Origin: Bispira polyomma | Taxonomy: Eukaryota | Reading direction: 5' to 3' | DNA: 64,000 nucleotides | NCBI GenBank assembly: GCA_965649765.1 | Contig: OZ287750.1 | Location: 34,534,001-34,598,000 of the forward strand | Part shown: positions 975 to 52,944 of the stretch, piece after piece | Numbering within the stretch: the first letter of the stretch is position 1 | How the letters are laid out: every line of letters begins with the position of its first letter | Position numbers and translations under genes: made by a program | The notes under the pieces: generated by a model | Told to the model about the DNA's origin: nothing | The model's input: the letters and a program-made list of their open reading frames with translations, nothing else | Database searches by the model: none

Positions 975-3900
975 ATATGAAGACTTCTGTGACTCGGGTG
1001 AGGGAGTTCTTGATGGTAAACAGTTAGAGGAAGCACTGCACAGTATCCCTGCTTGTGAAGAAGAGAAATTGTCAGAAGAAAGACTCAGGTGTGGTCATTA
1101 GAACTAAAAAACACTAAATATACATAAGGTGTGCTTGTTAGACACTAACCAATTCGTACTTGACAAGTTAACAGTGGCGGCGTTTGGGTCCAAAAATATT
1201 CACATTCAACTGTTAAATTGTTTACATGTGGATTTGCAAGTAAAAATGGCTTTAAAATTTTACCTAATGATAATAAAATATCACCAAGGTAAAACATCTC
1301 AAGTTTACAATATTAATATGCTTATACTACCCATCAATATCAGCATTCAAAAATGAAAACAATAAAAATTGCCAATATAAAGACACTAACCTAGTTGTAG
1401 TTGTACTTGACAATGATGATGATGTGGCCTGAAAATATGGAGTCCCCAGGACTCGACCAGTGATAAAAAGTCCATTTTAAAAAATTTTCTTTTAGTCAAA
1501 TATTTGAAATCTTAATTTACAGATAGATATTCTGAAATATAAATTATACAGTGCTTTCATCAGGATGCATCCTTTACTTATCTTTGCTTACATGTAATAT
1601 GATATATTACTCGGAAGTTTAATCGTGATCTATTCTTGAACAAAATATTTAATTTTGTGGATCCATGTGTGAAAGAACATTTGTTATTTGATGAGTTTGT
1701 AAGGATAACAATTCAGAACAAAATATTTAATTTTGTGGATCCATGTGTGAAAGAACATTTGTTATTTGATGAGTTTGTAAGGATAACAATTCAAATTATT
1801 GACAATAACAAATGTAATTCACCAACTAACCCTGGTTATTGTGTTTATGATATGTTGTGAGATTCAGATATTGTATACATTGTTTCTTACAGGGAAGAGA
1901 TAGCTGAATTGGAATATGAACTAGAGCAAAGTCAAAGGAGAAAGGAAGTACTTGTACAACAAAGAGATAAACTAAGGTATGTAACAGATGACATTATGTA
2001 AGAATTTAACTTGAAAGATTTTTTTAACTGAAGATGTATCATTACGTTATGATAGTTGTACCGTTTTCCAAAATTATGTGGGTTTTTATATCCCAGAAGT
2101 TAAAACATTTCAGAATACTTATCCTTTTACTAAAAACCCTAAATTTAATCAGTACCATTTCAAACTTTAGTAATGCTAAGCTTTAAGTAGCATTTTCGTA
2201 TAAAAAATATCTTAAATGTTATGTTAAAAATGTTTAGACCAGAAATTGGAATGGAGTGGATTTTGGTACATTGAATATATGTTGTTGTGAAATGTTGTTT
2301 GTAAACTGAGGAAAATATGTATATGTATCAATGTATGATGGTTTGCCTGGCTATAAATATCATTTATAATATATTCACATGTAGCGGTGAGACAGGGGAC
2401 CAGTTACTCGATTATAGGCATAGTTTTTGGGAAACCAGAGTAAAAGTTGCAATTAGGGGACTTTAAAACTCTTATATTATCGCCTATATAACTTCAACAA
2501 AACAAATGACAATAACTTTGGTCTGATTCTTGCACCCAACATACATTTTCCTTTTAATTTCCAATATTCCCCCAGATATTTGCCTTTATTTTTCGATATA
2601 TTTTGTTTACATCAGCCGCCATATTGTTAAATGGGTTTCTGAGATTGGTGTATACTAAATTTGCATGTATCCAGAATTGAAATGGTTAGATGCTTTCGAT
2701 TGTTCTGGCTGTTTTTGTTATTGTCTATGTCACCCCTATTCACAACTAGTCCTGTATGTTTATTACTTGTTAGTATTCACCAGAGCGTGGTGAATGATCG
2801 TGTGTACAACTTGGGCAGTTTGGAGTCAGCGGCAAAGTCAGAGTATAAACAGTGTCTAGAGCAGAGTCACACGGACAATGCCAAGGTGAGACCCTATTTG
2901 TCAATGGTCTTAGTTGAATTGAATTGAATTTGGATATTTAACGTCAACTCTAGTACCTGTTTAGGTTATAGTGGGACGGGTAGTTGGAAACGCTGGAGTA
3001 AACAATGCATACAATTGATCAAGGTTCTGCACTGAAACTAGCGGCCCACAGTAAGGAACTACCACCTTTCCCACATAGGCATCGACGGGATTCGAACTCA
3101 CGCTGCCCAGAGGTGAGAGACCAGTGATTGTGAAGCGCAATGCTTGCTAACCACTAGGCCACCACAGCCCCGTCAATGGTCTTAGACTCATTCCTATATG
3201 CTTAAACTCAAATACCACTAACATATGTATAGATATCCTCATTAATTGGAATAACCAGTTGTTTTAAAACAGCTTTTAGCAAGGAAGCTATATCATATGA
3301 TTGGAAGTCTTAATCACTGTCCCTGTGTTTGTATATATATTGATAGCTGAATGCGAGTGTTACACAGTTACAAGACTGTGTATCTGACCTCAGTGACCTC
3401 TACAGCACACATGGGGTGTCAGTACACAGAGCAACGGGTGAAGAACAAGACAGCGAGCATAGTGTGTTCCTCTCACAGCTCCCTCTACGTCATTTCCATG
3501 AGGCAGAGGAGAAATATACGCAGGAACTCACCAAGTACACAAAGAGGCTGTTCTTTCAGGTAATACATCAGGAACTCACAAAGTACACAAAGAGGCTGTT
3601 CTTTCAGGTAATACATCAAGAACTCACCAAGTACACAAAGAGGCTGCTCTTTCAGGTAATACATCAGGAACTCACCAAGTACACAAAGAGGCTGTTCTTT
3701 CAGGTAATACATCAGGAACTCACCAAGTACACAAAGAGGCTGTTCTTTCAGGTAAAAATGTAGATATAACAAATTAGGATAAGGATTACAGTGTTATAAA
3801 CCAAAAACCAAAATGAGCTCGAAATTGTAACAAGCTTAAGTTAGGCTTTAGTAATAATGTGTGTTTCCAGGGACTATCAGAACTGGCAGGACATAATGAG

Positions 3901-6900
3901 GGAACAAGGTATGAGATTCTGGAAGTTGGCAATCCCAATGCAATTCTGTTGAAAGGAGCAACTGAGACCATCAATTTGGAAGATTGTAAAGATTTGGCAA
4001 GACTACAAGCTTTGTGAGTAACTGCTGCATTTAGTTTGTTATTTATTTGTAAATTATACCTTGTGTTTTATGAGTCTTGAGTTATATTCAGGTAATTCTC
4101 ACAGTCATTATCAGTTGGACAAAAGATGTCTTTAATTTAGGTACATCATTAAGATATAGTTTGGGGGTGAGAGGTCCATTAAGGCAAATTGGTTGTGTCA
4201 TATGAAATGATTGACTTTCTTGTAGTGTGTACTCTTCAGTGATATGGTTGTTATTAAAGTAGTATAAAATACAAAGAAAAAAAAGATATTCTACAAAAAA
4301 AGTTAAAAGATATAATTATTTTATCTTGCTTTTAAGATATTTAAATTATATATAACTGCAACTGATAAGTTATTAGTGAATTATTTATGCTTTTTGTAAA
4401 ACAAAATACTTAAAAAGAAGATTTGTGTTTGGTTGTGTATTGATAAGTTTCATATGTGCAGCTCACTTTGCGTTGGAGTATTATGTTTACATGATATTGT
4501 TAGTATTGTTTAGATTTTCCCTAAACAAAATCCTGCTCATGGCAAAATGTTCCAAAAGTAGGAAAAAAAAAAGAAACCGTTATTGTTTTATGCCAACTTA
4601 TTGTATATAGATATGGTATATATGCCGTAACCATTAATTTCCAGTCCTACTGTCCTATATTGCAGCTATTCAAAAAGTGAAGCAGCCAGAATAAATGCTG
4701 GCCTTACAGAAAAAAGTTTTGAGGCAGCCTGTCTGTTTGTAGAAAGGAAACTACACAATATGAAAGAGCAGTCATATCCAAAAGAAATCAGGCATCTCAG
4801 GTAATCCAGTAGAAACTCTATTATCCAAACTTCTGTTATCCTAATGGGGGGGGCTCAGTGGTGCCGTGTTAACACACTCGCCTCTAACATATATTGTCCC
4901 GGTTAGAATTTCAGTCAGGGCTTTTTATAGGAAAGTTTGCAGTTATGATGGTGGTACCCCTTTCCAGTCTATTAAAAATGTGGTGTATGTCTTTTATGTC
5001 ATAGCAGTTGTACACATTGGACACCACTTATATCTCGCCAAAATGTGTATTCAAATTAAATAACATTCCCCATTTCAAAGTTTGTTTTGGCATTTGTATG
5101 TGTAAATTATCTTAACTGTGACATTTAAAATGTTTTGACAAGAAATTGGAATAGACCTGATTTTGGGACATTGACTATACTTGCCGATGGTTGCTGGTTT
5201 CCAGTGTAAAATCTTGACCAACCACTATACACTGGTTTCCTCAAGCATTAAAACTTCCTGTCATCATATGGCATATACAATGTGTTTAAAATGACGTTAA
5301 ACCCCCCAAAAATAAAATCCATTATCGTAATATTAAATTTTATGAACCAATTTCCACTCTCCCAAATTTTGTTTTTTCCTGTGGTTTTACACAAAAATGT
5401 GTGTTTTATAGACCTTCTGTTTTCGAGCATATAATGGTGCTCTCACAACATGTTTGGATAATAGAGGTTATACTCTATGTCTATGTATATTGTATATATA
5501 TATATATATATATATCTACATAGAAACATTCAATGTAGGAGAATGCCGTGCATGGATATGTACAGCGTTCGGATGTGGTTGTGAGCTTTACTCTCAAATT
5601 TGGCACACAGACATAGCCGGGGCCCGATCTTTTGAGACATCAATAGAGTTAGGAGCTCGTCGATATTAGGCTTTTTCTGTGATTTTGTAGGTGTGTTCAT
5701 TCCCAATATTTATTTGATGGTTTTATTTTGGTAATGGTTTCTTTACTGAGTGCTGAATGCTGTCTGGTCTCATTTTCAGTTGGTGTGGGTTTGACTCTGT
5801 TTTACATTGCATTTACACACTAAACAAAGCAATACTTTACATGATCAATCCACATTAAAAACATGACTGTGGAATTTTTCTTTTTTTCTCAGAGACAGAC
5901 TACAGGACAGCCAGAATACACTGAGTGTACTGAAGAGAGATGAGGTCGTGATGACAGAACAGGAGTTACCACGGCTACTGAAGGACAGCGCTAAAACACA
6001 GCTCACACAGATCCTGTCTGGGGACTATAACCTCAAGATTACACGTCAGGATTACTTCACATCTAACCAGGATAAGGTCTGTGTATAGAGGGGGTCATTG
6101 TGAGAAGGATAAAGTTAGGATAAATCTGGGGATAAAGAGAAAGTGTGGTTTTAAAATTGAAGGAATTTATCGAATGCAGGAATATATAAATTTATAATAA
6201 ATATGTTTTTGAGCCAAGAGATACGACATTTTCATTGTGATACACTTTTCACGTTAAGCAATGCAATAATTATTTTTAAGTTTTGTGGGTGAGGCAAACA
6301 CTGAACTACACAGTCAAACCCCTTTGACTAGATTACCCTTTTATTTGGAGAAAAAGTTATTGCCGAAAAAAATATTTCCAAATTTACCCAGTTAATTAGA
6401 AATCCTGCTTAAGTCTCTTGAGGTTGAATTTTCAGTGGTTTAACTGTATACAAGTTGACATAGGTTCTGTTGTTGCGCTTTAGAAGATGCCTCGCATCAA
6501 TAAGGCGCGTTAAAAATCCATAATACAATACTTATCACATGATGACATTTTATCATGCGAGTCATTTGGGTAATTGAATTGATTCCTAATGTTTCTCTAA
6601 TGCAGATTATAGAAGAACTAGTGAGTCAGCGATCCCGCAATGAGTTTCTGACCATGGCTTATGAAGTAGAGGACCGCGCTCACAGAGAGACCCACCGCTT
6701 ACTGACCGCTCTTAATATGTTACTGAAGAAACAAGTACAGGCACAGCAACACAGAATGGGGAGTTTCACCAGGGATAAGATTTAGATAAATACTTTGTCC
6801 TAACTTTTTGAAATATAATGTTTTACATATTGCTTCCAAGAATTTCCATTGGCCAAGATTAAGAAAGGTCTAAATATTGCTTCAAAAATTTTGATTGGCC

Positions 6901-9900
6901 AAGATTAAGAAAGGTCTGAATATTGCTTAAAGAATTTTAATTGGCCAAGATTAAGAAAATTCTGAATAATGTTTAAAAGATTATGATTGGTCAAAACAAA
7001 GAAAATTCTGAGAATTACATTGTAAGAATGTTAATTTAGCAGTGATTTCTGCAGTAAATCAGTTAAAGAAGTGACAGTTGAGATCTGTTGTAAACTTTGT
7101 GTCCAAGTGATCATTATGATAGTATGTGATGTATATAGTTAAAATATCTCCTACTGCATAATCATTGTTGTGTATAGGTTTTCCTCTTTCGCTGTCCGAC
7201 CACATTTTAATTTAATCTGTGACCATTAAGTTATGCCCTTGACTTTGAAAATGCTGTCACGTCCTTACTTTCAAAAACCATTTGTCACTTGTACCTTTGA
7301 ATTATATTCAAGATGAAATTTCATGTCACTGCATAGTTCTTAGGTTATCCCAACTTCTGTTGTCCAAATGTTTAATTATCTGAACTCATCCTAGCCCCAC
7401 AAAGTTTTGTTATGCTATTGTTTCCCACTGAAATACCTTCTATTATCAGAACCAAAAATACCTTGCTCACCCAACAGGTTTAGGAGTGGTTGTACAAGGC
7501 CATGATCTAATGTTTGAGCTTGGAGCCATACCTGTAACATAGAAAATTGTGTTCGGATATATAAAATCTTCCTGACCATTAGTCCTTTTTGGTGTTTAGA
7601 TAATATGTGTTCTACTTTAATTAACAGTCTTTTTCCATTCCAGAGTCTGTTGAAGGAGTCGAGTCTACAGTCGACCAGACACCAGAGGAATACAGTGGAT
7701 TCGAGGGACAAGTTCTTAATGCACATACATCAGCTCCTAGGTAAACACTGGTCTCTATAATGGCAATTGTTTAAACAGTTTTGGCTGACGATGTATGGTC
7801 TTCTACATCCATAATAGGCAGGAGCAGCTGGAGCCTAGAGGTTGTAAGTGTCTGCTTATATCACTAACCTTTTACCTGTGAGGACAGTGGCTTAGAATGT
7901 CACTGTTTCCTTCATTGTGGAGAGTTTGCCAGGTGCTTGCCGTTGGTCGGTGGTTTTCAGTACAAAACATACTCGTTTCTTGCAGTAATACACCTGGTCG
8001 TCACAATATAACCAAATAATAATTATTATATTGAAAACGAAGTAAAACCTAAGTTAATTCACATTCCACTTCCATAAGGTGTCTGCGGAAGGACTTCTAG
8101 GAGTGACTCCTATGCATAAAAGAAGGGCCATTTTGTTTGGGGTAAAAATTAATATTCATAGCATAATAATGAATGGTGGTAAAAGTATTTTATGGTCCAT
8201 TTCTTTTCCAACTACCCACCATCTTTAATGGTGATTTTTGTACATTATTGATCTACATAAGGTTCTCAAATCTTCCCATTAAGATGTATTGTGAACTTGA
8301 TCTGTGATAAATTTTATATGAACACCACACTTGACATATCACTTAAAATGGTCAATGTTAAGACTAGTTCATCATATGTATACCAGCAGGTGAAGCTGCG
8401 ATTCATGCAACACTTGAGAGTAATTCTCCATAAAGCGAATAAATAGCAAGTCAATTATCCTGTATATAGGCCATGGTCATTTTACAAGGTAAAATGATTA
8501 ATGCACACATTATAAGGAGCTTTCCTAATGGTCAGAACTCATAGAGAGCTGTATGTATATATATAATTGTATATAACTTGTATATTTCAGGTTCTGGGTC
8601 TGAAGATGACAAGCCTTTGTTTGTGAGTCACTCACAGTTGACGTCTCAAGCTTCTACTCTCAGTCACCAGGTGTCCTCATTGTCTGCATCACTAGCGGCA
8701 ACACATAGTAACCAGGATCACCGGCTCGTACAGATGTAAGTGTGAATATACAAATTGAAATGGTTTTGTAAATATTTAGTATTTCTTATGCAATGACAAT
8801 AAACCTGCAGCGGCCATAGTCACTAACAGACTTAAGCCAAATCTGGGGCTTAAATGTAGCACAAAAGTATACTAGATTAAGGCCTATGACTTGGCTAACT
8901 CTCTTTGTGAATACGGGCCCTGCAGAATATAATTTATTACCTCTCTAAGGAGGCTATGTTTTCACCTGTGTCTGTTGGTTGGTGGATTTGTTTGTTTGTC
9001 ATTAGAAAAACAACAAAAACTATTGAACCGAGTTACTTGAAATTGGGGGGAGGTATGGAACATGGGCTAAAGAAGAATCGAATCAAATTTTGATTTTTGA
9101 AAATATTTTTGAACTGTGGGACCTTGGCAGAGGTATGTTGTCTACTGAGTGCCCTTCTAGTTCAACAGATATTTAATGTATGGGTGTAGCAGTAGTATCA
9201 GCCACCACTATTATCTAATCTAATCTAATCTAGTCGTACTTTTATAGCGCTTAATCTTTGTACAACAAATTCTAAGGCGCAACAAACCCAAAATGTTAAT
9301 CGCAAATCAAAAATAGTGGGCGGATGGAAGTCGTAACCAGGGAGACTACTGTAGATGGTTGCGACAGCTAAGGTGGAAAAGCCTGTTCAAAAAGATAGGC
9401 CTTCAGCTTAGACCTGAAAGAGGAGAAAGTTTGAGCCAGGCGAACATGATCAGGTAGGCTGTTCCAAATGAGGGGGCCATCATGAGCTAGGCAGTGATTG
9501 AACTGAACTTTGGATTTGTGGATGCGAGGGTCGAAAGTGGGAATGTTAAGGTATAATTTATCAGGGTTACTGCGCCTAGTCCTGACTGAGCATGTATATT
9601 TGGATAGATGGGGGCTAAAATAAGTGGGTAATCCAGAATTTAGAAATTTATATATTATTGTTGCTGTTTTGAAAGCAACACGATATTTTATTGGGAGCCA
9701 GTGCAGTGACTTCAGTACAGGAGTAATGTGGGAAAATTTAGATGTTTTGGTCACAATACGTGCCAAGGAGTGTTGGATATTCTGAAGGCGTCTGAGATCA
9801 CTACGAGATAAGGAACGGAACAGAGAGTTGCAGTAATCAAGCCTGCTGCTGACCAAAGCATTGGCAACAGTGATTGCAGTGGATTTGGAAAGATAGCGTC

Positions 9901-12316
9901 GAATCCGCCTGAAATCACGGAGGCCAACAAAACATGATCTACACACCGATGCGACATGGTTCGAGAAGGAAAATTCAGAGTCGAACACCACGCCCAGGTT
10001 TCGTACTTTTTCAGCTGGAAAAAACCTGCTGCCAAGAATGTCAAGTGGAAAACAGCTGGACAATTTTTCCCGTTGCGACTTGGAGCCAAACAAAATAAAC
10101 TCAGTCTTCTCAGGGTTCAGCTTGAGTTTATTTGCTGCCATCCAGTGTTGTACATCAACAAGGCAGTTCTGTAAGGAAGTGAAAGCTACCTGGGCAGAGT
10201 CAGGTGTAAGGTGGATGTACAGTTGGGTATCATCAGCATAGAAGTGAAAGTTTATGTTTTTGTATGCAGCAATAATCTTGCTGAGTGGGATGGTGTACAT
10301 GGAAAACAAAATGGGACCCAGGACGGAACCTTGGGGAACACCAAATTTTAACCATGTTGGGTCGGATAAGATATTGCCAATTTTGACTGATTGGAATCTA
10401 TCAGATAAATATGCCGTGAACCACTTAAGCGCCATACCGCTGATACCGAACCAGGACGATAGGCACTCAAGAAGAACTTTGTGATCAATAGTATTATGAA
10501 GGCCTGCGTACATTTAGTGGGAATGGAAATCCTAACTTTGTAATGGGCCGGTCCCACCAGATTTACGTTAGGATATGTAAGTCACGCATGGCGTTGTAAA
10601 ATATTTGATGCAAAACGTCATGCAAAACTAGAAATTAGGAATTTTCTCCACGTTGTAGGGGTCAACAGACATTGAAATTCATCTATTAGTACGTCAAAAG
10701 CTGTAAAGTCTTGCAGGGGGTGCATAAATTCATGTCAAAGTAAGTATTTTAACCCTGTATGACAAGTATGAGTACACCAATACACTTAAAAGGACGTCAT
10801 AATGACGCACATTTACACACTGTGACGCATATCTACGTTTTAGTATGTCATACTTTTGCATCTCTTGCGTGTCCAAATTTCAAACGGTTTGAAATTATTA
10901 ATTTTGTGTGTGTCACCTCTCACGCCAGCTTATGTATGTTTATGTATGGTACGTCAGTTCCCGCAAATAACACGCAAAACCTACGCAAATTAATTTTCAA
11001 ACGACAGCAAACGTGACGGCCGGTGGGACCAGGACATAACAAGGAGAAATGTGTAGACAGTTGTCAGAGTCTGGTGTATTCTGGTACCAGTACAGGACAA
11101 CCAACCCTCAGTCTATAGAATCCAATAATATAGAGATTCTTCTGAATCTATATAAAGAGTGTTACCTTTATAACAGGGAGAAGTGTGTAGACAGTTGTCA
11201 GAGTCTGGTGTATTCTGGCTCTAGTACCAGTACAGGACAACCAGCCCTCAGTCCACAGCCCATACACGATGCACTGCTACAGTTAGACACCATGGTGAAA
11301 AAACTAGAACAGGTCATAATGGATGTCATCAAAGATGTGGAGTCCAAAAAAAAGGTGAGTTATGTCTGAATTATGTCAAATGTTGGATGTTAATATCTTG
11401 TTATGTATATATTTAGATTCTCGTACAGTAAATACACTAGGGATCCTATTATCACAAAATCTACTGTTAACACTATAACTTTAGACATTTCCTTCAATAT
11501 TCTTACAATTTAATATTGGTATTGTTTTATACTAAATTAATTCAATGAAAGTTCAGTTAATCTGATAAAACTGTCATTTTCCTTGGCTTTTTGATAGTAA
11601 GTGGTTCTACTGTAAACAGGGAAATAAATAGTTTTTATTAGCATAAGCTTCTGCACAGAACAGTATGTTTAATTATTTATTCTGATATACAGTATGTGGT
11701 CCTAGATTCTATATAAACTTTCTATTTTGCAAACAAAATCCTGCTCTCTCAACATGTTCAGCTAATAGTGGTTCTACTGTACTTACCATAGATTAGTGGT
11801 TTACATGACAAATAGTCCTGGTTTTCCTCCACCAATAAAGCTGGCCTTCACAACTTGACCAAAGATACTGAAAGTGACATCTATCCCAAGTTAATTAACA
11901 TTCAAAATGATGTCCCTCGGTTGTACAGTGGTAACACACTTGCCTCCTACCTCTACTGTCATGGGTTTGTATCTTGACCTTGGGGTATATGGATAAAGAT
12001 GGCAGTAGACTTGCTGAAGACTGGTCGTTCGCAGAACAGAAAACTTTGACATAACTTTCATCTATTTACTTCCCGTCGTTATATGACACAAACGTGTTGA
12101 TAGCGACGTTAAGCTCAAACTAATTAAATGTAATGTAGTTTTTACTTCCACTAAACGTTCTACTGTTTATCTGTTCATACATTGCAGACATTAAAGGCCG
12201 ACCCTCTGTTATCTCTGGAGAGGGAACTATTTGTGTACTTCTACACCGACCCTCAGACACTGAGACGCGTCATTGATGACTTAGAGGCTCGTCTGAATGC
12301 ACAGTTAATTAGATGA
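975..12316 (+). CDS. HAUS3: HAUS augmin-like complex subunit 3, 5'-partial, 12 exons: 975-1088, 1893-1976, 2774-2885, 3347-3559, 3871-4013, 4666-4800, 5893-6076, 6606-6758, 7644-7740, 8591-8735, 11177-11354, 12188-12316 (TGA 12314-12316)
   Basis: Hand-spliced exons keep a consistent phase, with AG acceptors and GT donors (one GG exception at 6759). The translation has HAUS3-like motifs: GVLDGKQLEEAL, VFLSQLPL..F...EEKYT..LTKYTKRLFFQG, ILSGDYNLKITRQDYFTSNQ, QRSRNEFLTMAYEVE.R.HR, RNTVDSRD, LERELFVYFYTDP. The N-terminal exon(s) lie upstream of the window. Confidence 0.92.
1638..1793. repeat. Perfect 2 x 78-bp tandem duplication in a HAUS3 intron
   Basis: The unit gaacaaaatatttaattttgtggatcc...ggataacaattca starts at 1638 and again at 1716. 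Confidence 0.95.
2914..3171 (-). mobile_element. tRNA-derived SINE, full length, with 14-bp target site duplication (TSD)
   Basis: Minus-strand box A (TGGCCTAGTGG) and box B (GTTCGAATCCC), (AATTC)n tail, and TSD GTCAATGGTCTTAG at 2900-2913 and 3172-3185. A highly similar copy lies at 58734-59002. Confidence 0.9.
3521..3754 (+). repeat. 48-bp tandem repeat (about 4.9 copies) spanning a HAUS3 exon end and its splice donor
   Basis: The unit caggaactcaccaagtacacaaagaggctgttctttcag|gtaatacat starts at 3521, 3569, 3617, 3665 and 3713 and encodes QELTKYTKRLFFQVIH in frame. Confidence 0.95.
6830..7020. repeat. Degenerate 46-bp minisatellite (about 4 copies), intronic
   Basis: attggccaagattaagaaa recurs at 6848, 6894 and 6940, with a decayed copy near 6986. 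Confidence 0.8.
8933..9162 (+). mobile_element. Non-autonomous Helentron/HINE-like (DINE-1-type) repeat
   Basis: Begins TTTATTACCTC..AAGGAGGCTATGTTTTC, has a (GTTT/GTTG)n tract, and ends CTTGGCAGAGGT...GAGTGCCCTTCTAGTT. Related decayed copies lie near 44420-44640 (-) and 52065-52310 (+). Confidence 0.6.
9213..10493 (-). mobile_element. 5'-truncated L2/CR1-group LINE (reverse transcriptase C-terminal half, 3'UTR and (TTAGA)n tail) in HAUS3 intron 10
   Basis: ORF 9368-10513 has TIDH, GVPQGSVLGP, YADDTQLY, LKLNPEKTEF, SRLDYCNSL, LHWLP and FRSKLKAYLF. The 3' end has a GCGCCTTAGA...AGCGC stem followed by pentamer repeats. Confidence 0.92.
10544..11036. mobile_element. PIF/Harbinger-type MITE (493 bp)
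   Basis: Imperfect 15-bp terminal inverted repeats (TIRs): TGGGCCGGTCCCACC versus reverse complement TGTCCTGGTCCCACC. TAA flanks both sides (10541-10543, 11037-11039). Confidence 0.75.
11037..11113 (+). pseudogene. Degenerate partial duplicate of the HAUS3 exon-11 acceptor and 5' portion
   Basis: taacaaggagaaatgtgtagacagttgtcagagtctggtgtattctgg... closely matches the sequence from 11171, with the acceptor AG changed to AA and a 6-bp deletion. Confidence 0.85.
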
Positions 12317-22743: not shown

Positions 22744-23853
22744 TTACTTTGACAACCCATTAATCTTCAACCTTCCATCTTTAAGCATAGCAGTGACAGT
22801 GTTGGGGTCTACAAGTTCACTAAGTTCAAACTGCTTGCTGAAGGAAGACTTTGACTTCTTGCCTGCAGCATTTTCGATGTGTTCTGCCTCCACAGTCAGG
22901 TTTCGGCCATCTACCTTCACTACTAAGTCATCTGGCTCGTATGTTGGCCCGATGTTCATCATCAGTACCAGCTCACAGCCCTTTTCTGTGTTGTAAAATG
23001 TTGGTGTATCTAAAGGTGGAGTTTTGGCACGAACTGGGTTACTCTTCACGATGACTGGAACCCCTTCCTGTTTCTGTGTGGCAGTAGGAACCATATAGAT
23101 CTTTTGGGTGAATACTGGTGTGTTTTTGGAGCTACTGGTAGTCGACTGCGACCCTATTGCGGGTTCTGGGTGACTCATAACAGTGGGTGTATTATACCTT
23201 TTGGTTGTAGGCACGGAAGCTGGTGCTTGTCCAGAGTTCACGGACTGCGACGGTACTGGCGAGTTTGACTGAAGGATGTATTTGGGAGAATCCCTTCCTC
23301 CATCCGTGACACTCTTGTAATTTGGGGGAACTGGTGCAGAAATTGTTAGTATTCCATCCTTTGACATGACAGACTGCAACTTGTCATTGTCCACTTCGGT
23401 GGGGATCTTGATCTTTCTGCTGAACTCGTTAATGACCTTGTTGCCATTTTTGTCCTGCTCGTGTTTGGCTTCGACAACCATGGTGTCCTCTTGCACCTTC
23501 ACGCTCACTTCACTGGGGTTATACTCATGTACATCAAAGCTCATCTGGAAGCGACGACTCTTGGTCTGTGGATCCTCTACAAAGAGTGACTTCAGTGCAC
23601 TCTCATCCAGACTCTCGCTGCTACCTTTGAGGTCACTTCCCTGTGAACTTCTGACTCTGTTGAAAGGGTCACGGGGATGCAGTTTCATGAAGCCTCCACA
23701 CATGCGGTCAAAGTCGTTCCCAAATGCTGAACTGTGAAATGGCCTAGAGCCAAAGGACATGTCCATGTCATGATGCATGTCATCAAACATTCTGGACTGA
23801 CGGTCGTGGAAGCTGAAGTCATCTCTGCGGATGGGGACTCTGTGATAACTCAT
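22744..23853 (-). CDS. Small heat-shock protein with two alpha-crystallin domains (p40/major egg antigen-like), 369 aa, single coding exon
   Basis: ATG at 23853 is in a CCACCATG Kozak context, 17 nt after a TTACAG acceptor (exon starts 23870). First domain: FQMSFDVHEYNPSEVSVKV...AKHE...EFSRKIKIP.EVD...S.MSKDGILTISAP. Second domain: YEPDDLVVKVDGRNLTVEAEH...FSKQFEL...VDP..VTA.LKDGRLKI. A Ser/Pro/Thr-rich linker separates them. Confidence 0.9.
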   Translation of the reverse strand: MSYHRVPIRRDDFSFHDRQSRMFDDMHHDMDMSFGSRPFHSSAFGNDFDRMCGGFMKLHPRDPFNRVRSSQGSDLKGSSESLDESALKSLFVEDPQTKSRRFQMSFDVHEYNPSEVSVKVQEDTMVVEAKHEQDKNGNKVINEFSRKIKIPTEVDNDKLQSVMSKDGILTISAPVPPNYKSVTDGGRDSPKYILQSNSPVPSQSVNSGQAPASVPTTKRYNTPTVMSHPEPAIGSQSTTSSSKNTPVFTQKIYMVPTATQKQEGVPVIVKSNPVRAKTPPLDTPTFYNTEKGCELVLMMNIGPTYEPDDLVVKVDGRNLTVEAEHIENAAGKKSKSSFSKQFELSELVDPNTVTAMLKDGRLKINGLSK

Positions 23854-23955
23854 GGTGGACACTGGTTAATCTGTAATGTGATAAAATACATTTATAATAT
23901 ATAGTGACACATAGTATGAATTGAGTACAATGTTTAGATAAATAGTTATAAATTG

Positions 23956-24650
23956 TGTAGTACATGTTATTTTTCATTAGGATGTTGTATTACTTTCATA
24001 TGAATATGTGTATTTTATTTGCTGTATTTTTTTTTATGTAATGTTTTAACTGATGAGTTATATATGTATTTTATTTGCTGTAGTTTTAACTGATGAGTTT
24101 ATTTGAAGTTGTGGTATTTCAAAATTTGCAGTCTCCATTACGTGTCAGAATAATACACAGGTGAACTGCTGTAAAAGTAAAGGGAGGTAGTCCACCCTCA
24201 CCTTTGCACATTTGGAATTTATTGATTAATGTAAAGTTTAAACATAGCCACTGCAAGGCTAAGGTATTTTGCTTTCTCATATTTACTTCTGGACACATTT
24301 ATGTGTTTCTCCAGCTGTATGCAACTTGTCACTTTGACAGTTCAACTATCATGTGCAATACTTTTATTATTATAAGGCATTACTTTCCCACAGCACAGAA
24401 TTAGGATGGATAAGTTGGTAACAGCAATCTGGAGATTTCTTTGATTATTCTGAGTTAGTTTTTGATGGAATAAGAAGTGTTTTCAGCCATTGGGCTAGAT
24501 ATGTAAGATTTAAAAGAATGTATTAATTAGGCAGACCTAATTAATCATTATCTGAACCGTGTTGTTATTATCTAACAAATAATTATTAGGCAGACCTAAT
24601 TAATTGTAATGAAATAGATATATTAGGATTGTTAATGTAATTTCACTGTT
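23956..24650 (+). repeat. 5' LTR (3'-truncated: lacks the last ~70 bp and the primer-binding site)
   Basis: Matches 29477-30172 with about 8 substitutions and 1 indel by manual count, then diverges abruptly after tttcactgtt. Confidence 0.9.
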
Positions 24651-24896
24651 TTCACTGGAAAGAATAAGTTAAGTATAACTTCTAAAAATAAAGCAATAAA
24701 CTTGTGGACTGAGAGCGGATCTTTCATATTAATCTATAATTGATTTGATGTATGATATTAAGACTGGCCTAAGGGTAATTAAAGGCTGATCGAGTCTCAA
24801 CCAGTAATAATTGCTTTGTTTTATGTGAAAAGTCAAGTGGAAATCGTACATACCCAGAACAGTTAAATTCACCTATATTGTTTTACACGCTACATT

Positions 24897-27800
24897 ATGG
24901 CTACATCCACAGAAAAATGGATTGCCTGTGGAAAAGAAATGGGATTAAAAGAAGCAGCTTTACTCGAGTTTGTCACTCAACATGAAAAAGAGGAAGCCGA
25001 ACGTGATGAGCGGGCCCACCTGAGGTCTATTGAAAAGGAAAAGTGTGAGTCGGAACAAATGAGGCTGGAAGAACACGAACGAGGACGCCAACATGAGAAA
25101 CAAATGAGAGAGATGGAATTGCTGGAGAAAGAGAAAGACAGGGAGCACGAGAGGCAAATGCCAGACAGGACAGGTAGTTTTCCAGTTAGCCCAATGCCTA
25201 CAACTGCTGACGATGTACCTAAAGGTCCGAAACTACCTTATTATGATGACAATAAGGATGATATAGACTCATATATCCGGCGGTTCGAGAGGTATGCAGA
25301 GGCCTGCAAGTGGGACAAGTCCAGGTATGCCACTTACTTGGGGAACTTACTTCAGGGAAAGGCATTGGAGGTTTATGTCAGAATGCCATTAGAAGACATA
25401 TCAGACTACAACAAACTGAAGAATGCATTATTGAGAAGATTTGAAATGACAGAGGAAGGATTCAGGAGAAGATTCCACAGCTCCAGAATGGAAAAGGGGG
25501 AAACTGCGTCCCAATTTATGAGCAAACTTGCCGATTGTTTTGACAGGTGGACAAAACTCGCAAATGTTCCGGAGTCATATGTAGGCCTGCGTGAGTTTTT
25601 AGTAGTGCAACAGTTCTTATTTGCATGTCCAAAGGAAGTTGCCACTCATATTAGGGAGAAGGCATTGAGTAAAACAGATGAGGTAACTTCAACTGCTGAC
25701 TTATATATGGATGCTCATAAAATAAGTCTTTGGTCAGACACAAAGCCAAAAAAGACTGTCAAACAAAGTGTGTCAGAAGAAAAACCAATTGGCCAAGCAG
25801 CTAAAGGAAGTTTTGAGAAGCCAACCAAGACGGGGCATGAGAGTCATGGTGCAAAAAGCTATGGCAACAAATCGAGATCTACAGTTAGGTGTTATAACTG
25901 TGATGGCATAGGACATTATGCAAATGAATGCAGAAAGGCAAAGCATGTAGCAGTTATCCAGGTACAGCAATCACCTGAGGATGAAAGCCCAGTAGACATG
26001 GGGCTTGTTACTACATCCACTTACTGCTCTGTAGAGGAGACCCATGAATGCAAAAGGCATGCCATCAGAATGGGTCGATTAAGATGTCCGACAATCGGAT
26101 CTACAAAACTACTTGTAGAAGATAGCCAGTCCATGAAGAACTTGCCGACCGCAAGGGGCAAATTGAATGGCAAAGATGTAACTGTCCTCCGAGATACAGG
26201 ATGTACCGGAGCAATTGTGAAGAGAAGTCTGGTAGAAGAAGACCAGCTGCTGAACTACAAGTGTAGCTACATCAGCATTGACAGGACGATGAAGCCTGTG
26301 CAAGTTGCGAGAGTGTACATTGTGTCACCAATCTACACAGGTTATTTTGAAGCTTTGTGTGTGGAAGATCCACTGTGTGATGTGGTTATAGGTAATCTAC
26401 CTGAAGTTATCAGACAGAAGCATGACTTACTGCACAATGCCAAGAATAGCATCAGGAATGGCCCAAATGATGGTCAAGGGCCCAAGGAGTCGCATCGTGA
26501 TGAAGATTTGAAGAAACTAGACAACAGTGTCATAACTCAAGCTGTTACAACTAGGCTTGGTCATGAGAAGGCCAAAAGAAAAGACAAACCACTGAAAGTA
26601 ACTGCATTGAAGGATATAGGTGATCCTGCAGATTTCAAGTTAGCCCAAGAGGAAGATGCTTCGTTATTCAAAGAGAGAAAGTGGGCAGAGATTAGGAAAG
26701 TGAAATACAACCCTAAAGCTCACAGTGAAACCTCATTCAGTGTTGTAAAAGGACTTCTTTACAGAATAGTCACCAAGCAGAAATTGGGACTGAACACAGA
26801 GGAAAAACAACTAGTAGTGCCAAAGAAGTACCGCCAAGCTGTGCTGAAGCTAGGACATGAAACGTTATTCGCTGGTCACATGGGCATTGTGAAGACCACA
26901 GACAGAATACAGTCGAACTTTTTCTGGCCAGGCATGCATCTTGATGTCCAGAATTTTTGCAGGTCATGTGACATATGCCAGGGAACAGCTCCAAAGGGCA
27001 GAGTGGCGAAGGTTCCTTTGGGACGAATGCCAATTGTTAATACGCCATTCCAGAGAGTAGCAGTGGACTTGATTGGTCCCATACAACCAGTCAGTTGCCG
27101 AGGCCATCGTTACATCCACACAATGGTGGATATGGCAACAAGATATCTAAAAGCCATGGCACTAAAGAACATAGACTCAGTGACAGTTGCAGAGGCATTG
27201 ATTAAGATGTTTAGTGATGTTGGATTCCCAGTGGAGATGTTAAGTGATCGTGGAACACAATTCACTTCTGGCATGATGAAAGAGGTTGAAAGATTAGTCT
27301 CAATCAAACCTTTAGTGACCAGTCCATACCATGCACAGTGTAATGGTCTGTGTGAGAAATTTAATGGAACATTGAAACAAATGTTAAAGAAGATGGTCGG
27401 GAACAGCCAAAGGATTGGGACCGGTACATTGAACCACTCTTGTTTGCATATCGGGAAACCCCAGTAGAGAGTTTAGCAAGGTTTTCGCCATTTGAAGTGC
27501 TATATGGCAGAACTATTTGAGGCCCTATGTCAGTGCTGAAGGAAGTGTGGTCAAATGAAGAGGTCCAAGAAGAAGTAAAAGATACATATGAGTATGTCCT
27601 TGATTTGAGGGATCGGCTTGAGGAAACCAGGAAGTTGGTGTCTGAGGGTCTGCAGAAAGCCCAGGACAAACAGAAGAAATATTTTGATCGAAAGGCAATT
27701 CAGAGGGAATTGAAAGAAGATGACAAGGTCCTGATACTCCTCCCAACAGATGAAAATAAACTGTTGATGCGTTGGAAGGGACCATACTCAGTCAGAGCCC

Positions 27801-29408
27801 GCATTGGGATGAACAATTATGCTGTGGACATCAATGGGAAGACAAAGGTGTACCACATCAACATGCTGAAACAGTATTTTGATAGGGGCGATTTGGCAGT
27901 GGAAGCCACAGAAGCAGGTGCTATGGGGATCATAGATGATCAAGACAACAATGAGATCAGCCCATTGTAACTAGTAAGATTTTTGGGACACCTAAAGAGG
28001 CCGAAACACATCTGGATGTAAATATAAATGAAAACTTGTCTGGTGGTCAGAAAGAGACTGTCCGAGAACTAGTGGCAAGATATGGAGACATATTTTCGTC
28101 AACTCCAGGAACTACCCACCTGGTGAAGCATGATATAGTGCTAGATGACGACGTGCCAGTGAGGACAAAGCCCTACCCAGTTCCATATGCTAAGTATGAA
28201 GAAATGAAGGCACAAATAAACGAGATGCTAAAACTAGGCATTATCGAAGTTTCTGAATCACCATATTGCAGCCCGCTTGTTATGGTCAAGAAAAAAGATG
28301 GCTCAATGAGGTACTGCCAAGACATGAGAAATATTAACAGAAAGACAAAGTTTGACTGTGAGAGACCTGTGGAAATCGATTCCATATTTGCCAAGCTGTG
28401 TGATGATAGATATTTCTCAAAATTTGATTGCTGCAGAGGTTACTGGCAGATCCCTTTGACAGAAAGAGCGAAAGAGATAACAGGGTTTTCCTCACCCTTC
28501 AGTCACTACCACTTTGTAAAGATGCCATTTGGACTCGTGAACTCTGGAGCAACATATGAGAAAATGATGAGAAAACTATTGGGAAACCTCCAGTGCGTTG
28601 ACCACTATGTTGATGATGTATTGGAACATACCAGAGATTGGTCAGAGCACATGACAGTGATGGAAAACTTCTTCCAAAAGTTTTGACAGGCAAACCTGAC
28701 GTTAAAACCCTCCAAGTGTTACCTTGGATACTTTGAAGCTGACTTTCTTGGACACAAAGTTGTGAGTGGCATGCTAGCTACCCAAGATGATAAGTCAGAA
28801 AAGATCAGAAACTCTCCCATCCCAAGCACCAAGAAACAACTGCGCTCATTCCTGGGATTATGCTCATATTACCGCCGGTACATACCGAACTTTGCTGAGA
28901 TCACGTTTCCACCGACAGAACTGATGGAAAGAAGATGTCAGAAAAGCTGGCCTTAACAGATGTCCACAGAGATGCCATAGAGAAGCTCAAGGAAATCATG
29001 TGCTCAGGTCCCATATTGAAATTACCAAATGTGAAAGAAAGTTTTGTTCTCAGGACCGATGCGTCTAATGTCGGGATAAGTGCTGTGTTGATGCAGTACC
29101 ATGAAGGTGAGCTATTTCCAGTGATGTATGCAAGCAGAAAATTGTTGCCAAGAGAGAGGAACTATGCTGTAATTGAGATGGAGTGTCTTGCGCTTGTGTG
29201 GGCAATTGGTAAATTTGAAGTGTATTTGTATGGCCAAGAATTTACCATTCAGACTGACCATAGGTCATTGGAGTATTTAAACAAAGCCAAGTTCAGCAAC
29301 GCCAGGATTATGCGTTGGGCCCTCAGCTTGCAACCTTACATGTATAAAGTGGAGTACATCAAGGGAGAGGACAGTGTCGGCGCAGACTTCCTGTCAAGGA
29401 ACATTTAA
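24897..29408 (+). pseudogene. Disrupted gag-pol: Gag with SCAN-like capsid region and CCHC knuckle, aspartic protease, integrase, reverse transcriptase (RT), RNase H
   Basis: CYNCDGIGHYANEC knuckle; LRDTGC protease; H-X6-H...C-X2-C and DDE integrase (VAVDLIGP, SDRGTQF, NGLCEKFN); RT DCCRGYWQI, MPFGL, YVDD; RNase H LRTDAS, E.ECLALVWA, TDHRSL, ADFLSR. Frameshifts near 27400, 27900-27960 and 28930; in-frame TGA at 27518 and 28684. Confidence 0.92.
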
Positions 29409-29476
29409 ACCGTGGATGCAATGATTATTGTACAGACATACGGACACCCGAACAACATCCTTAAATGGGGGGATAT

Positions 29477-30243
29477 TGTAGTATATGTTATTTTTCATTA
29501 GGATGTTGTATTACTTTCATATGAATATATGTATTTTATTTGCTGTATTTTTTGTTATGTAATGTTTTAACTGATGAGTTATATATGTATTTTATTTGCT
29601 GTAGTTTTAACTGATGAGTTTATTTGAAGTTGTGGTATTTCAAAATTTGCAGTCTCCATTACGTGTCAGAATAATACACAGGTGAACTGCTGTAAAAGTA
29701 AAGGGAGGTAGTCCACCCTCACCTTTGCACATTTGGAATTTATTGATTAATGTAAAGTTTAAACATAGCCACTGCAAGGCTAAGGTATTTTGCTTTCTCA
29801 TATTTACTTCTGGACACATTTATGTGTTTCTCCAGCTGTATGCAACTTGTCACTTTGACAGTTCAATTATCATGTGCAATACTTTTATTGTTATAAGGCA
29901 TTACTTTCCCCACAGCACAGAATTAGGATGGATAAGTTGGTAACAGCAATCTGAAGATTTCTTTGATTATTCTGAGTTAGTTTTTGATGGAATAAGAAGT
30001 GTTTTCAGCCATTGGGCTAGATATGTAAGATTTAAAAGAATGTATTAATTAGGCAGACCTAATTAATCATTATCTGAACCGTGTTGTTATTATCTAACGA
30101 ACAATTATTAGGCAGACCTAATTAATTGTAATGAAATAGATATATTAGGATTGTTAATGTAATTTCACTGTTAATAAATTTAGAACTATCAAACTGGAAC
30201 TTTATCTGGTAATACAGGCAACTGCACATCTGGTTACACAACA
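29477..30243 (+). repeat. 3' LTR (767 bp, complete)
   Basis: Follows the polypurine tract, runs TGTAGT...ACAACA, has AATAAA at 30173, and is followed by TSD AATTG. Confidence 0.9.
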
Positions 30244-45060: not shown

Positions 45061-46608
45061 ATGAGTTCAATTCTAATGTGTGATCAATGTGTTATAGTTG
45101 GAATGTCTTCTACACTCACTCAAACTGTCACTCAAATGGAGTCTGTCCATTCTTTTGTCAGGTAAGGACCTAGATTTTGTTAATAGCTTAAATTTTAATT
45201 CAGAATTGAAAGTTTCTGTAAACAAAAGTTGGTATTTCCTTAAAACTCACTAACGTATAATATGTAAAATGGAAATATGAAAATACATTGGTTTTAGATT
45301 ATTGCTGAATATAATATATGATATGATTGATTTTTAAATATCCAATTAATTTGACATAAGCAGCATTATTTTGTATAGTCTTATATTCCAATTATCCAAA
45401 ACTTACCACTATGTAAAATGTTTATACATAAATTTATATATATTAAAATATAGGACATAAACTTGTCAGCAATTAATGTGTCAGTTTGGCCATTTCAATA
45501 TCAACATCTCAATAAAATGTGTAATTGATATTTAGTAACCAATGTATTAGAAAAGATTATCACTAGTATAACTAAATAAAGCTGTAGCAAATCTGTTATG
45601 ATCAATAAAAAAACAAGATTCCGTGAGCTATGTGAATGCAGCAAAATAAAAAAAATAATTAACAAAGTATTTAGTATTCACTGTATTGAATATAATTGTG
45701 TTAAAACAGATTTAGTGAGCTATGTAAATGCAGCAAAATAAATGAATAATTAACAAAGTATTTAGTATTCACTGTCTTCGCTGGTATCCTTCAAAATAAA
45801 TAAATGAATTAGTTAAAAAAAAATAATTACCTAGTAAATTAACTGTCTTGACTGTTCCAGCTACCATGGTATTGCTGATCAGAGGATAAGAACAATGAGA
45901 TCCAATTGGAAGATCCCCAATAGTCGTTTGTCTCGGTCTGCATCCCTCAGTGATGTCAACGCAGTGACCCCGAATGGTACAGTCAAGAATGGGTACCATG
46001 CTAATGGCTTGTACACCTCCATACCACCACCATTAGGCAATGAGACCATTTCAGAGGAAACAGGGATTTCAACTTACGACAGCGATCACTCATCACCTTC
46101 CAATGCACTCAGACGCGAAAGTTATGCAGGCTTCAACTCCGAACCTAAACCGACCCGACGTAGACCATCATACAAGCGACTACGTAGCAGAAAGCATGCG
46201 GTGAAACGAGTTCACTCGGGTCAGAGTCCATACGCATCTCCTTGTGAGTTGCTGGAACAGGTGGTAGACTATCACAGTGAGGAAGCTGATGATGACTGTT
46301 CTACCAGTCTCCTACAATATATGGTCTCAGTGCTGATGATCCAGTACATGACCTGGACAGAACAACTCTATAAAGGATTCCAGGGATGCAGTACCAAACA
46401 CAGATTCTGGATGTGGGCACTGGCCTGTGTTATAACCACACTAGCAGCCATTGGCTTGCTCACACTCTTAGCATTTCTACTGTTACATGCTATTGATGTG
46501 GTTGTCTTGGTCACAGCCGCCTCTGTGAAGTTTCTGGTCCTTTTAATATCCATGAGCTTTGTGTGTTGCTGTGCGGTGTTAATACTAAACTACAAAGGGG
46601 ATCATTAG
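45061..46608 (+). CDS. Uncharacterised membrane-associated protein; proposed join(45061-45161, 45861-46608), 282 aa (237 aa if started at 45895)
   Basis: A 714-bp ORF, GC-richer than its flanks, is preceded by a TTCCAG acceptor (45860). An upstream CAG|GTAAGG donor (45162) splices in frame, with ATGs at 45061, 45076, 45103 and 45136. The N-half is Ser/Arg-rich and the C-terminal ~60 aa are hydrophobic. AATAAA near 46729. The start codon is uncertain. Confidence 0.7.
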
Positions 46609-51600: not shown

Positions 51601-52944
51601 CTGGAAACAAGTGTATGTAAGTTAATGACAGCTGGATGCAGTATAACAACTGATTTCTGGTTTAGACACATTTGGTCAAGAAAGGACTAAAATGTCCTCA
51701 TCCAAATGAGGAGGTTGTGTATGTGAACATAATAGAATTCCATTTGATTTCGTCACTTCCAGCTTATCAGTCACTTCCTGAGCAAAGATCAAACAAATCA
51801 AAACAAATGTACTGGCTTATCCCAATATAACAGGTAGAGTTTGTCTTCAATTTATAATAACTTATATCTAATCTGTTTTAACATATTGTTAACATGTTTT
51901 ATTTTGATTATGTGTAGTGTGTATATTTCAAACAAATCATTTCAACAGAAAAATTACCACATAGTGTCTGTACAAATAACTGATCACAACACTATAGATG
52001 TGTACACCACAAAGCATTACATGTATATTACCTATATGTTCTTTAAAACTTATTTAACTAAGGTTAATATTTCTTTCAAGGATGTGCTGTTTTCGCCCAT
52101 GTCTGTTGGTTGGTTTGTCACCAGATTTAGACAAGCATCTACTGTACCAAATTACATGAAATTTTGTGAATTTGGGAGAGGCAAGGGCCAAAAAAGAATC
52201 CATTAAATTTTAGAGTGTTTACAGGAAAGAAGGACAATATATTTCAGGATATTGTCATTGCACACCTTCGTAGAGGAATACACATTACTAAGTGCCCTTG
52301 CGTTGTAGTTGCTAATTAAATTACCCATAAAAAATTCTAATTAATTATTATTAAAAACGGTTAAAAGATGACACCTATATAATAGACATACTATAATACC
52401 TGTAATGCAATATATCAGTCTCTCAAGCTATGAATACATGCTAGTTCCACACCTGTCAGTTTAATGCTAATGTGTCAATGCTCAGTAACATGTACATGGG
52501 GACCTCGGTGGTGTAGTGATAAACTCGCCTCTCAAATCTGCAGTATTGGGTTCGAATCTCGACTCCAGCATGCATGTAGGAAAAATGGCAGTAAACTTGC
52601 TAAAGGTTGGTGGCTTGCGGAGAAGACAACCTTCACCAATACCCCTGTTCTGATTTCCTCCAATAATGAACTGCCAATCTCCATATGACAAAGTGTTGAA
52701 TTCAACCGACGTCAAACTAAAACTACATGGGCAGTCAAACTTGTACATAAAGATCAAGTATTCGTATTCGTATATTCATATTTGTGGTCTTTATAAGAGG
52801 TGGTCTCTCTTTAAAGTGATCTGTAAAGCAGGTTATATGACCTGTTATACAGTTATTTCCGAATTTCAGATATGGTATAGAAGACTGTCTAGCAACTAGT
52901 ATCTAACTGAAGTCAATTACAGTGAATATATCAACAACCAAACA

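Follow-up and report, generated by a model that had tools for sequence, protein, structure and literature searches.

Background

Replacement of the T at position +2 of a splice donor by G is scored in clinics as a near-certain loss of function, and the resulting GG donors are missed by most gene finders. The closest described cases in which such donors work are two leaky alleles of human ATM, c.1898+2T>G and c.6347+2T>G, for which 13% and 24% full-length transcript were found (PMC12805630, in part; here and below these words mark papers of which a portion of the text was consulted). According to Table 1 of the same paper (PMC12805630, in part), four of five +2T>G variants at strong sites failed to yield any full-length transcript in human minigenes, the only productive one lying in the context CAG/G-AAG (the slash marks the exon end), and an ATG/GTAAGT donor failed even with the milder GC. 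In reporters, GG ranked next to last among the non-canonical donors and lost to weak GT competitors (PMC6280755, in part).

Non-canonical donors are also known from natural genomes. The derived GA donor of intron 12 of SYMRK in Trema orientalis is spliced to about 95% and has spread in the population (PMC10668435, in part). In the copepod Eurytemora affinis, GA/GG donors are found in 10–12% of introns, which are newly gained, and there the exon-end AG is obligate and an A at +3 nearly always present (PMC5714493); by RNA support the class amounts to 3% of introns. Human GG donors number 32 of 222,263 introns (Parada 2014, quoted in PMC5714493), and alternative sites account for 76% of the non-canonical ones in human (PMC4176328, in part), while no GG-AG intron is annotated in Drosophila (PMC4528330, Table 3, in part).

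GG donors and leaky +2T>G alleles are already known. What is new is the site described here, the donor of intron 9 of the cell-division gene HAUS3 (augmin subunit 3) in a lophotrochozoan invertebrate: in the accessible literature, with most subscription journals outside its scope, no report was found of a GG donor in HAUS3, nor of one in molluscs or annelids. A natural and apparently homozygous GG in a gene that is essential in mouse, with GT in a close relative, offers a test of GG donors outside the AG/GGAAG context.

Results and discussion

Structure and copy number of the HAUS3 gene

The window, that is the whole stretch of 64,000 nucleotides analysed, is G000:C3:34534001-34598000 of an assembly of 1.035 Gb in 75 contigs. 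When exon 6606-6758 was used in a protein search, the same Pfam set was found in 12 of 12 matches; the named matches are mollusc proteins, most of them HAUS3. One orthologue, P0002, matches 7SQK_C with E = 1e-74. The alignment of orthologues yields a gene model of 13 coding exons:

3.7 kb before the window, plus strand: HAUS3 exon 1, rebuilt from the preceding stretch
975..12316, plus strand: HAUS3 coding exons 2-13, from orthologue alignment, 620-aa frame
975-1088, 1893-1976, 2774-2885 and 3347-3559, plus strand: exons 2-5
3871-4013, 4666-4800, 5893-6076 and 6606-6758, plus strand: exons 6-9
7644-7740, 8591-8735, 11177-11354 and 12188-12316, plus strand: exons 10-13
6606..6758, plus strand: coding exon 9 of 13; 51 codons in 153 nt, both ends in phase 0
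7644..7740, plus strand: coding exon 10, from orthologue alignment

The 620-aa frame is open, shows no lesion other than the GG donor of intron 9, and is 39–45% identical over its full length to the seven mollusc-like orthologues compared. All of the 11 other coding introns have a GT donor. The exon preceding the GG site, called exon 8 in the preliminary description, is coding exon 9, exon 1 lying before the window. It can be skipped in frame with a loss of 51 residues, and in an alignment of 13 sequences 24 of its 51 columns are invariant. Pfam searches with three single HAUS3 exons returned one weak unrelated match and none to a HAUS3 family. The gene appears to be single copy: six of six protein matches fall on one locus and there is one DNA match, with only the best candidates scored, and no working paralogue or retrocopy was found in the genome among these best-scoring candidates. 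In mouse, homozygous mutation of Haus3 is lethal around implantation (PMC3009607, in part).

Several smaller irregularities lie within the gene. The final 48 nt of exon 3347-3559, together with its CAG/GTAATA donor, form a head-to-tail repeat of about four units (window 3512-3751), with donor copies at 3560, 3608, 3656 and 3704 and a variant near 3752. The start of exon 11177-11354 has a partial duplicate at about 11024-11120, some 150 nt upstream of the real acceptor, which also gives a tblastn match. Intron 10 contains two mini-exon-like stretches flanked by AG and GT, 7818-7843 (26 nt) and 8079-8102 (24 nt); neither is needed, as the junction from 7740 to 8591 aligns without a change in length.

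The donor of intron 9 and the sites around it

Exon 9 ends with CAC AGA ATG (ATG at 6756-6758) and is followed by GGGAGT. The sites that matter for its splicing are:

6735..6740, plus strand: cryptic phase-0 donor CAA/GTACAG, product 8 aa shorter
6741..6746, plus strand: cryptic phase-0 donor CAG/GCACAG, product 6 aa shorter
6759..6764, plus strand: GGGAGT, non-canonical donor where the ancestral intron begins, with a derived G at 6760
6759..7643, plus strand: HAUS3 intron 9, 885 nt, GG...AG if the ancestral site is used
6783..6785, plus strand: in-frame TAG, reached if intron 9 is retained, stop after 8 codons
7629..7643, plus strand: pyrimidine tract and AG acceptor (ttccag/7644), strong, 76th percentile

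The sequence thus agrees with the preliminary description on the ATG/GGGAGT junction with its G at 6760, on the stop reached by read-through, on the continuation in phase 0 at 7644 and on the presence of both in-frame alternatives. No U12-type ATCCT motif is present at this donor; GG is surrounded by a U2-like consensus and the intron ends in AG. The nearest GT upstream lies 24 nt away.

Eight junction models were compared, and only GG 6759 joined to 7644 is free of gaps and keeps the conserved RM against 12 of 12 orthologues. Gaps or odd residues are required by GA 6774, by GT 6763 with 7600, by GC 6746 with 7628 or 7646, and by GT 6735 with 7656; the donors of these rejected models, 6735 excepted, score below all 233 training donors of the matrix described below. 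Use of the exonic GT at 6621 or 6666 would remove 46 or 31 residues, and intronic GTs such as those at 6868 and 6914 lie beyond the in-frame stop. Directly upstream of exon 9, at 6465-6531, the window holds a short repeat of very high copy number, with a depth of up to millions.

Age of the intron and of the GG donor

A search of metagenome contigs found six loci, four of which hold the whole exon; L102 and L103, matches of 15 residues, were left out. The orthologous donor is GT at exactly the same phase-0 position in four of four animal loci (GTAAGT, GTGAGT, GTAGGT and GTATCC). In a close relative, an ORF of 86 residues is identical to exon 9 in 47 of 51 residues and reads QQHRM-V across the exon end, and an ORF from a snail cluster reads ERM-V at the exon end, so that the read-through residue is Val in both exon ORFs. 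This Val means a codon GTN at the donor position. Both lines show that the ancestral donor lies at 6758/6759; a comparison of orthologous introns had been proposed in the preliminary description. Judged from these sequences, the intron is old and its GG derived, the change being younger than the split from the close relative; its date is loose because the intron of the relative has diverged. The read-through ORF of the close relative is absent from the protein collection searched, where the best full-length match over exon 9 among 16 candidates reaches 63% and none is a transcript-derived protein of a close relative.

The length of the protein across the junction is equally constant. In the model, 52 residues separate the motifs on either side of the junction, as they do in 23 of 23 full-length homologues (11 of them near-identical mussel proteins), and the net spacing of P0002 recurs in HAUS3 of human and Xenopus. 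The earlier claim of gap-free spacing holds directly against 12 of 12 invertebrate orthologues and, through this one orthologue, for human and Xenopus. Among the three metagenome loci resolved for spacing, one is shorter by a single residue and none by 6-8. Use of either cryptic donor would remove an Arg that is shared by 13 of 13 sequences, and the last eight codons of exon 9 show no decay, seven of the eight residues being as in the close relative.

Presence of the G in sequencing runs

Logan contigs were available for three runs (X1-X3) of one study, representing at most two samples; as their contigs span the intron, these are DNA runs. Among the runs listed for 5860-8780 there was none of RNA, which says nothing about expression. 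X1 and X2 each give one long contig over 6502-7900 at a depth of 17.3 and 18.8, respectively, and X3 one over 6630-7900 at a depth of 65.8. None has a differing letter: G stands at 6760 in all three and there are no other letters over 1271-1399 bases. The assembly may have been made from the sample of X1 and X2, whereas X3 is a second sample, possibly not a second animal; a contig start beside a GATC site hints that X3 is a Hi-C library. At 6760 these contigs, in which alleles are collapsed, show G and no T.

Logan contigs merge alleles into a single path (PMC12424806, in part), and G in three of three runs is for this reason compatible with a hidden T allele. The region around 6760 looks nearly homozygous nevertheless, since no difference between runs and assembly was found where 6502-7900 is covered and the contigs have full depth: 17.3 and 18.8 belong to the upper class, with values of 7-8 in some other contigs. 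Background heterozygosity was judged from 6400-7900 only. On this basis the animal is likely G/G at 6760.

Strength of the candidate donors

A donor matrix was built from 233 GT donors of the same genome, ignoring +1 and +2. The flanks of GG 6759 fall on the 36th percentile, those of GC 6741 on the 24th and those of GT 6735 on the 3rd. The U1 duplex in normal register gives -4.8 kcal/mol for GG, -4.5 for GC 6741 and -0.6 for GT 6735. The 261 real donors have a median of -8.3, and the 10 further donors of HAUS3 inside the window range from -6.7 to -10.7. GG lies at the 5th percentile of the real donors and below all 10 of its neighbours, and 6735 pairs more weakly than 261 of 261. The preliminary description had called 6735 and 6741 weak, which they are, but this gives no ground for dismissing them: the pairing of GG with U1 is about as weak as that of 6741, and rescue by these cryptic sites stays a live rival.

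The GG site (ATG/GGG) has neither the exon-end AG nor the A at +3. The first is found in 173 and the second in 147 of the 233 GT donors, and only 17 of 233 have neither; with both of these marks missing there is no sign of compensation. By these scores GG is the best of three weak candidates, and it resembles an ordinary donor hit by one mutation rather than a strengthened one. Nearby in-frame alternatives accompany 44-50 of 261 donors, so the mere presence of 6735 and 6741 says little. For purine-rich 5-mers exon 9 ranks second of 11 exons, a result from a motif list of our own making to which no weight is given.

Search for further GG donors in the genome

Dynein heavy-chain genes were surveyed at 12 of the 20 loci listed, with 50 kb taken at each, aligning across each junction the best five of 70 long proteins among 150 returned. 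This gave 318 junction groups, 263 of them with at least two references; for 15 a non-canonical pair gave the better fit. In eleven of the 15 the donor is GT and it is the acceptor that is uncertain. Of the four flagged non-GT donors, three were inspected and fell away (an unbroken frame without an intron, a GT lying downstream of the reach of the search, and a CCT/GTAAGA donor), and the fourth has a single reference and poor scores. Among the 263 junctions of this one gene family, none has a GG or GA donor (95% upper bound 1.1%).

As a positive control, the GG of HAUS3 was flagged by nine of the nine references that yielded the junction (margin 14-33; three of the 12 gave none) and no other HAUS3 junction was flagged. 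True donors relabelled as non-canonical were flagged in 261 of 261 cases, a control that is partly circular. The GG donor is a one-off among the introns checked, with no sign of a lineage-wide trait in this sample.

The 5' end of U1 is canonical in 30 of 30 copies read, out of about 213. An exact search for a U1 5' end changed at A7 found no match; a more diverged variant would escape it. The ACAGAGA of U6 is canonical in the six copies read of 48. The U1 genes form an array of about 200 tandem copies at 1.6-2.4 kb spacing (G000:C1, about 22.58-22.88 Mb), and U6 one of more than 40 copies of a 702-bp tandem unit (G000:C1, about 64.68-64.71 Mb).

Possible splicing of intron 9

The reading that we tentatively prefer, though at somewhat less than an even chance, is that the derived +2T>G donor is spliced leakily, by the major spliceosome, in a fraction of the transcripts. 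In this view, one T-to-G substitution changed the GT of the ancestral intron 9 donor to GG. U1 may then still pair at -1, +1, +3 (wobble), at +4 to +6 and at +8, leaving a G-A mismatch at +2, the ACAGAGA of U6 would hold the intact AGT at +4 to +6, and the strong 7644 acceptor could help to define the intron. Partial cutting at 6758/6759 would supply enough full-length HAUS3, and the remaining transcripts would use 6735 or 6741, skip exon 9, or retain intron 9. Some working product must be made, since the animal was alive and carries a single, intact-looking copy of a gene that is essential in mouse. Use of GG is favoured by elimination, because the alternatives drop the invariant Arg and break the invariant spacing. 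Against it stand the human minigene and reporter results on +2T>G and GG donors, the weak U1 duplex, the missing exon-end AG and +3 A, and the failure to find a compensating U1 among the copies covered. The weight given here to each reading is a matter of judgement, not of computation.

It is rather unlikely, but deserves attention, that the animal is heterozygous, the assembly showing a G allele with defective splicing while GT is kept on the second chromosome, from which the protein is made. The GTN of the close relative and the uncompensated flanks of GG fit this view, as does the fact that in human cells the majority of the +2T>G alleles tested were null (PMC12805630, in part), and a second allele would not show in Logan contigs, which collapse it (PMC12424806, in part). 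All three runs keep the G, however, which for a 50:50 site would be expected in about 1 in 8 cases if the picks are independent, and the covered part of 6502-7900, at full contig depth, is without any difference between runs and assembly. A heterozygous defect, if true, would be ordinary genetic load.

Equally to be reckoned with, if unlikely, is that the old donor is dead and that the in-frame cryptic donors 6735 (GT) or 6741 (GC) rescue the gene with a HAUS3 eight or six residues shorter. Both keep the frame, and donors as weak as 6735 do occur in the genome (3rd percentile). In a structure model of P0002 (low confidence, mean pLDDT 58), a helix spans residues 374-437 and the residues lost by cryptic splicing correspond to 427-434; they would form the last two turns of this long predicted helix before a loop, where trimming may be tolerated. 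If so, augmin tolerates a shorter HAUS3 helix. The unvarying spacing in 23 of 23 homologues, human and Xenopus, the lack of any locus 6-8 residues shorter among the three resolved from metagenomes, the loss of the invariant Arg and the undecayed end of exon 9 (seven of eight residues as in the relative) all speak against such a shortening. Furthermore, 6735 lies below all 261 real donors in U1 pairing, and 6741 lacks the AG/GCAA core of working GC donors (PMC12805630, in part).

We likewise consider it improbable that the GG allele is fixed in the species and spliced efficiently and constitutively, with neither the exon-end AG, the A at +3, a helper GT nor a variant U1, on which other GG/GA donors depend. 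Were this true, an animal spliceosome could lose the +2 U at an ordinary donor cheaply, with nothing but exon definition and the pairing at +4 to +6 to carry it.

Still less probable is that the animal merely survives with a homozygous, poorly spliced allele, owing either to a partial dispensability of augmin or to recent inbreeding of the region. Viable augmin mutants exist in flies, the region looks homozygous and every candidate donor is weak; yet HAUS3 has no other lesion, exon 9 is identical to that of the relative in 47 of 51 residues, and mouse Haus3 is essential (PMC3009607, in part).

The option of a consensus error, raised in the preliminary description for the run of four G in which the base lies, is nearly excluded and very improbable even though X1 and X2 share a sample that is the possible source of the assembly, because independently built contigs of all three runs, including the second sample at a depth of 66, are identical to the window across the site. 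Homopolymer errors are, moreover, usually changes in length and not swaps of T to G. Whichever reading holds, an automatic annotation of HAUS3 is likely wrong at this junction.

Comparison with known non-canonical donors

If it works, the HAUS3 GG would by analogy act like the derived leaky donors. It shares with the ATM alleles the loss of a single base, the +2 T, at an existing U2 donor, with GG at the original cut. The context differs, ATG/G-GAGT in HAUS3 as against the near-perfect consensus CAG/G-AAG of ATM c.6347 (PMC12805630, in part), and whereas the ATM alleles were measured in minigenes, the HAUS3 site is a natural allele, apparently homozygous, seen in DNA. Trema SYMRK is similar in that a derived non-canonical donor, absent from the sister lineage, belongs to a conserved intron in a single gene that is needed; there GA arose from GC in a plant (PMC10668435, in part), here GG from GT in an animal.

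With the Eurytemora donors the site has in common the GG at +1/+2, the constitutive position and the unchanged 5' end of U1 (PMC5714493; PMC7072748, in part). In contrast to them, the HAUS3 intron is ancient, its context is ATG/GGG, and none of the 263 dynein junctions is GG or GA; differing in frequency, context and intron age, it falls outside the copepod class. Human GG donors too are surrounded by a U2-like consensus (PMC4176328, in part), but human non-canonical sites are mostly alternative, whereas no site other than GG yields the conserved HAUS3 protein. The FGFR-type GA donor is helped by a canonical GT 6 nt upstream (PMC4176328, in part), compared to 24 nt for the nearest upstream GT in HAUS3.

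Other features of the window

Outside HAUS3, the window contains a 373-codon single frame on the minus strand (22744-23865) that, by eye, resembles a small heat-shock protein with two alpha-crystallin-like domains. A Gypsy-like LTR retrotransposon extends over about 24165-29943, with matching terminal repeats (starting at 24165 and 29686) and a pol broken over several frames. Also by eye, a frame of 256 codons (45838-46608) has hydrophobic, membrane-like segments at its end, and another at 52900-53262 begins with a signal-peptide-like stretch, followed by a reeler-like start.
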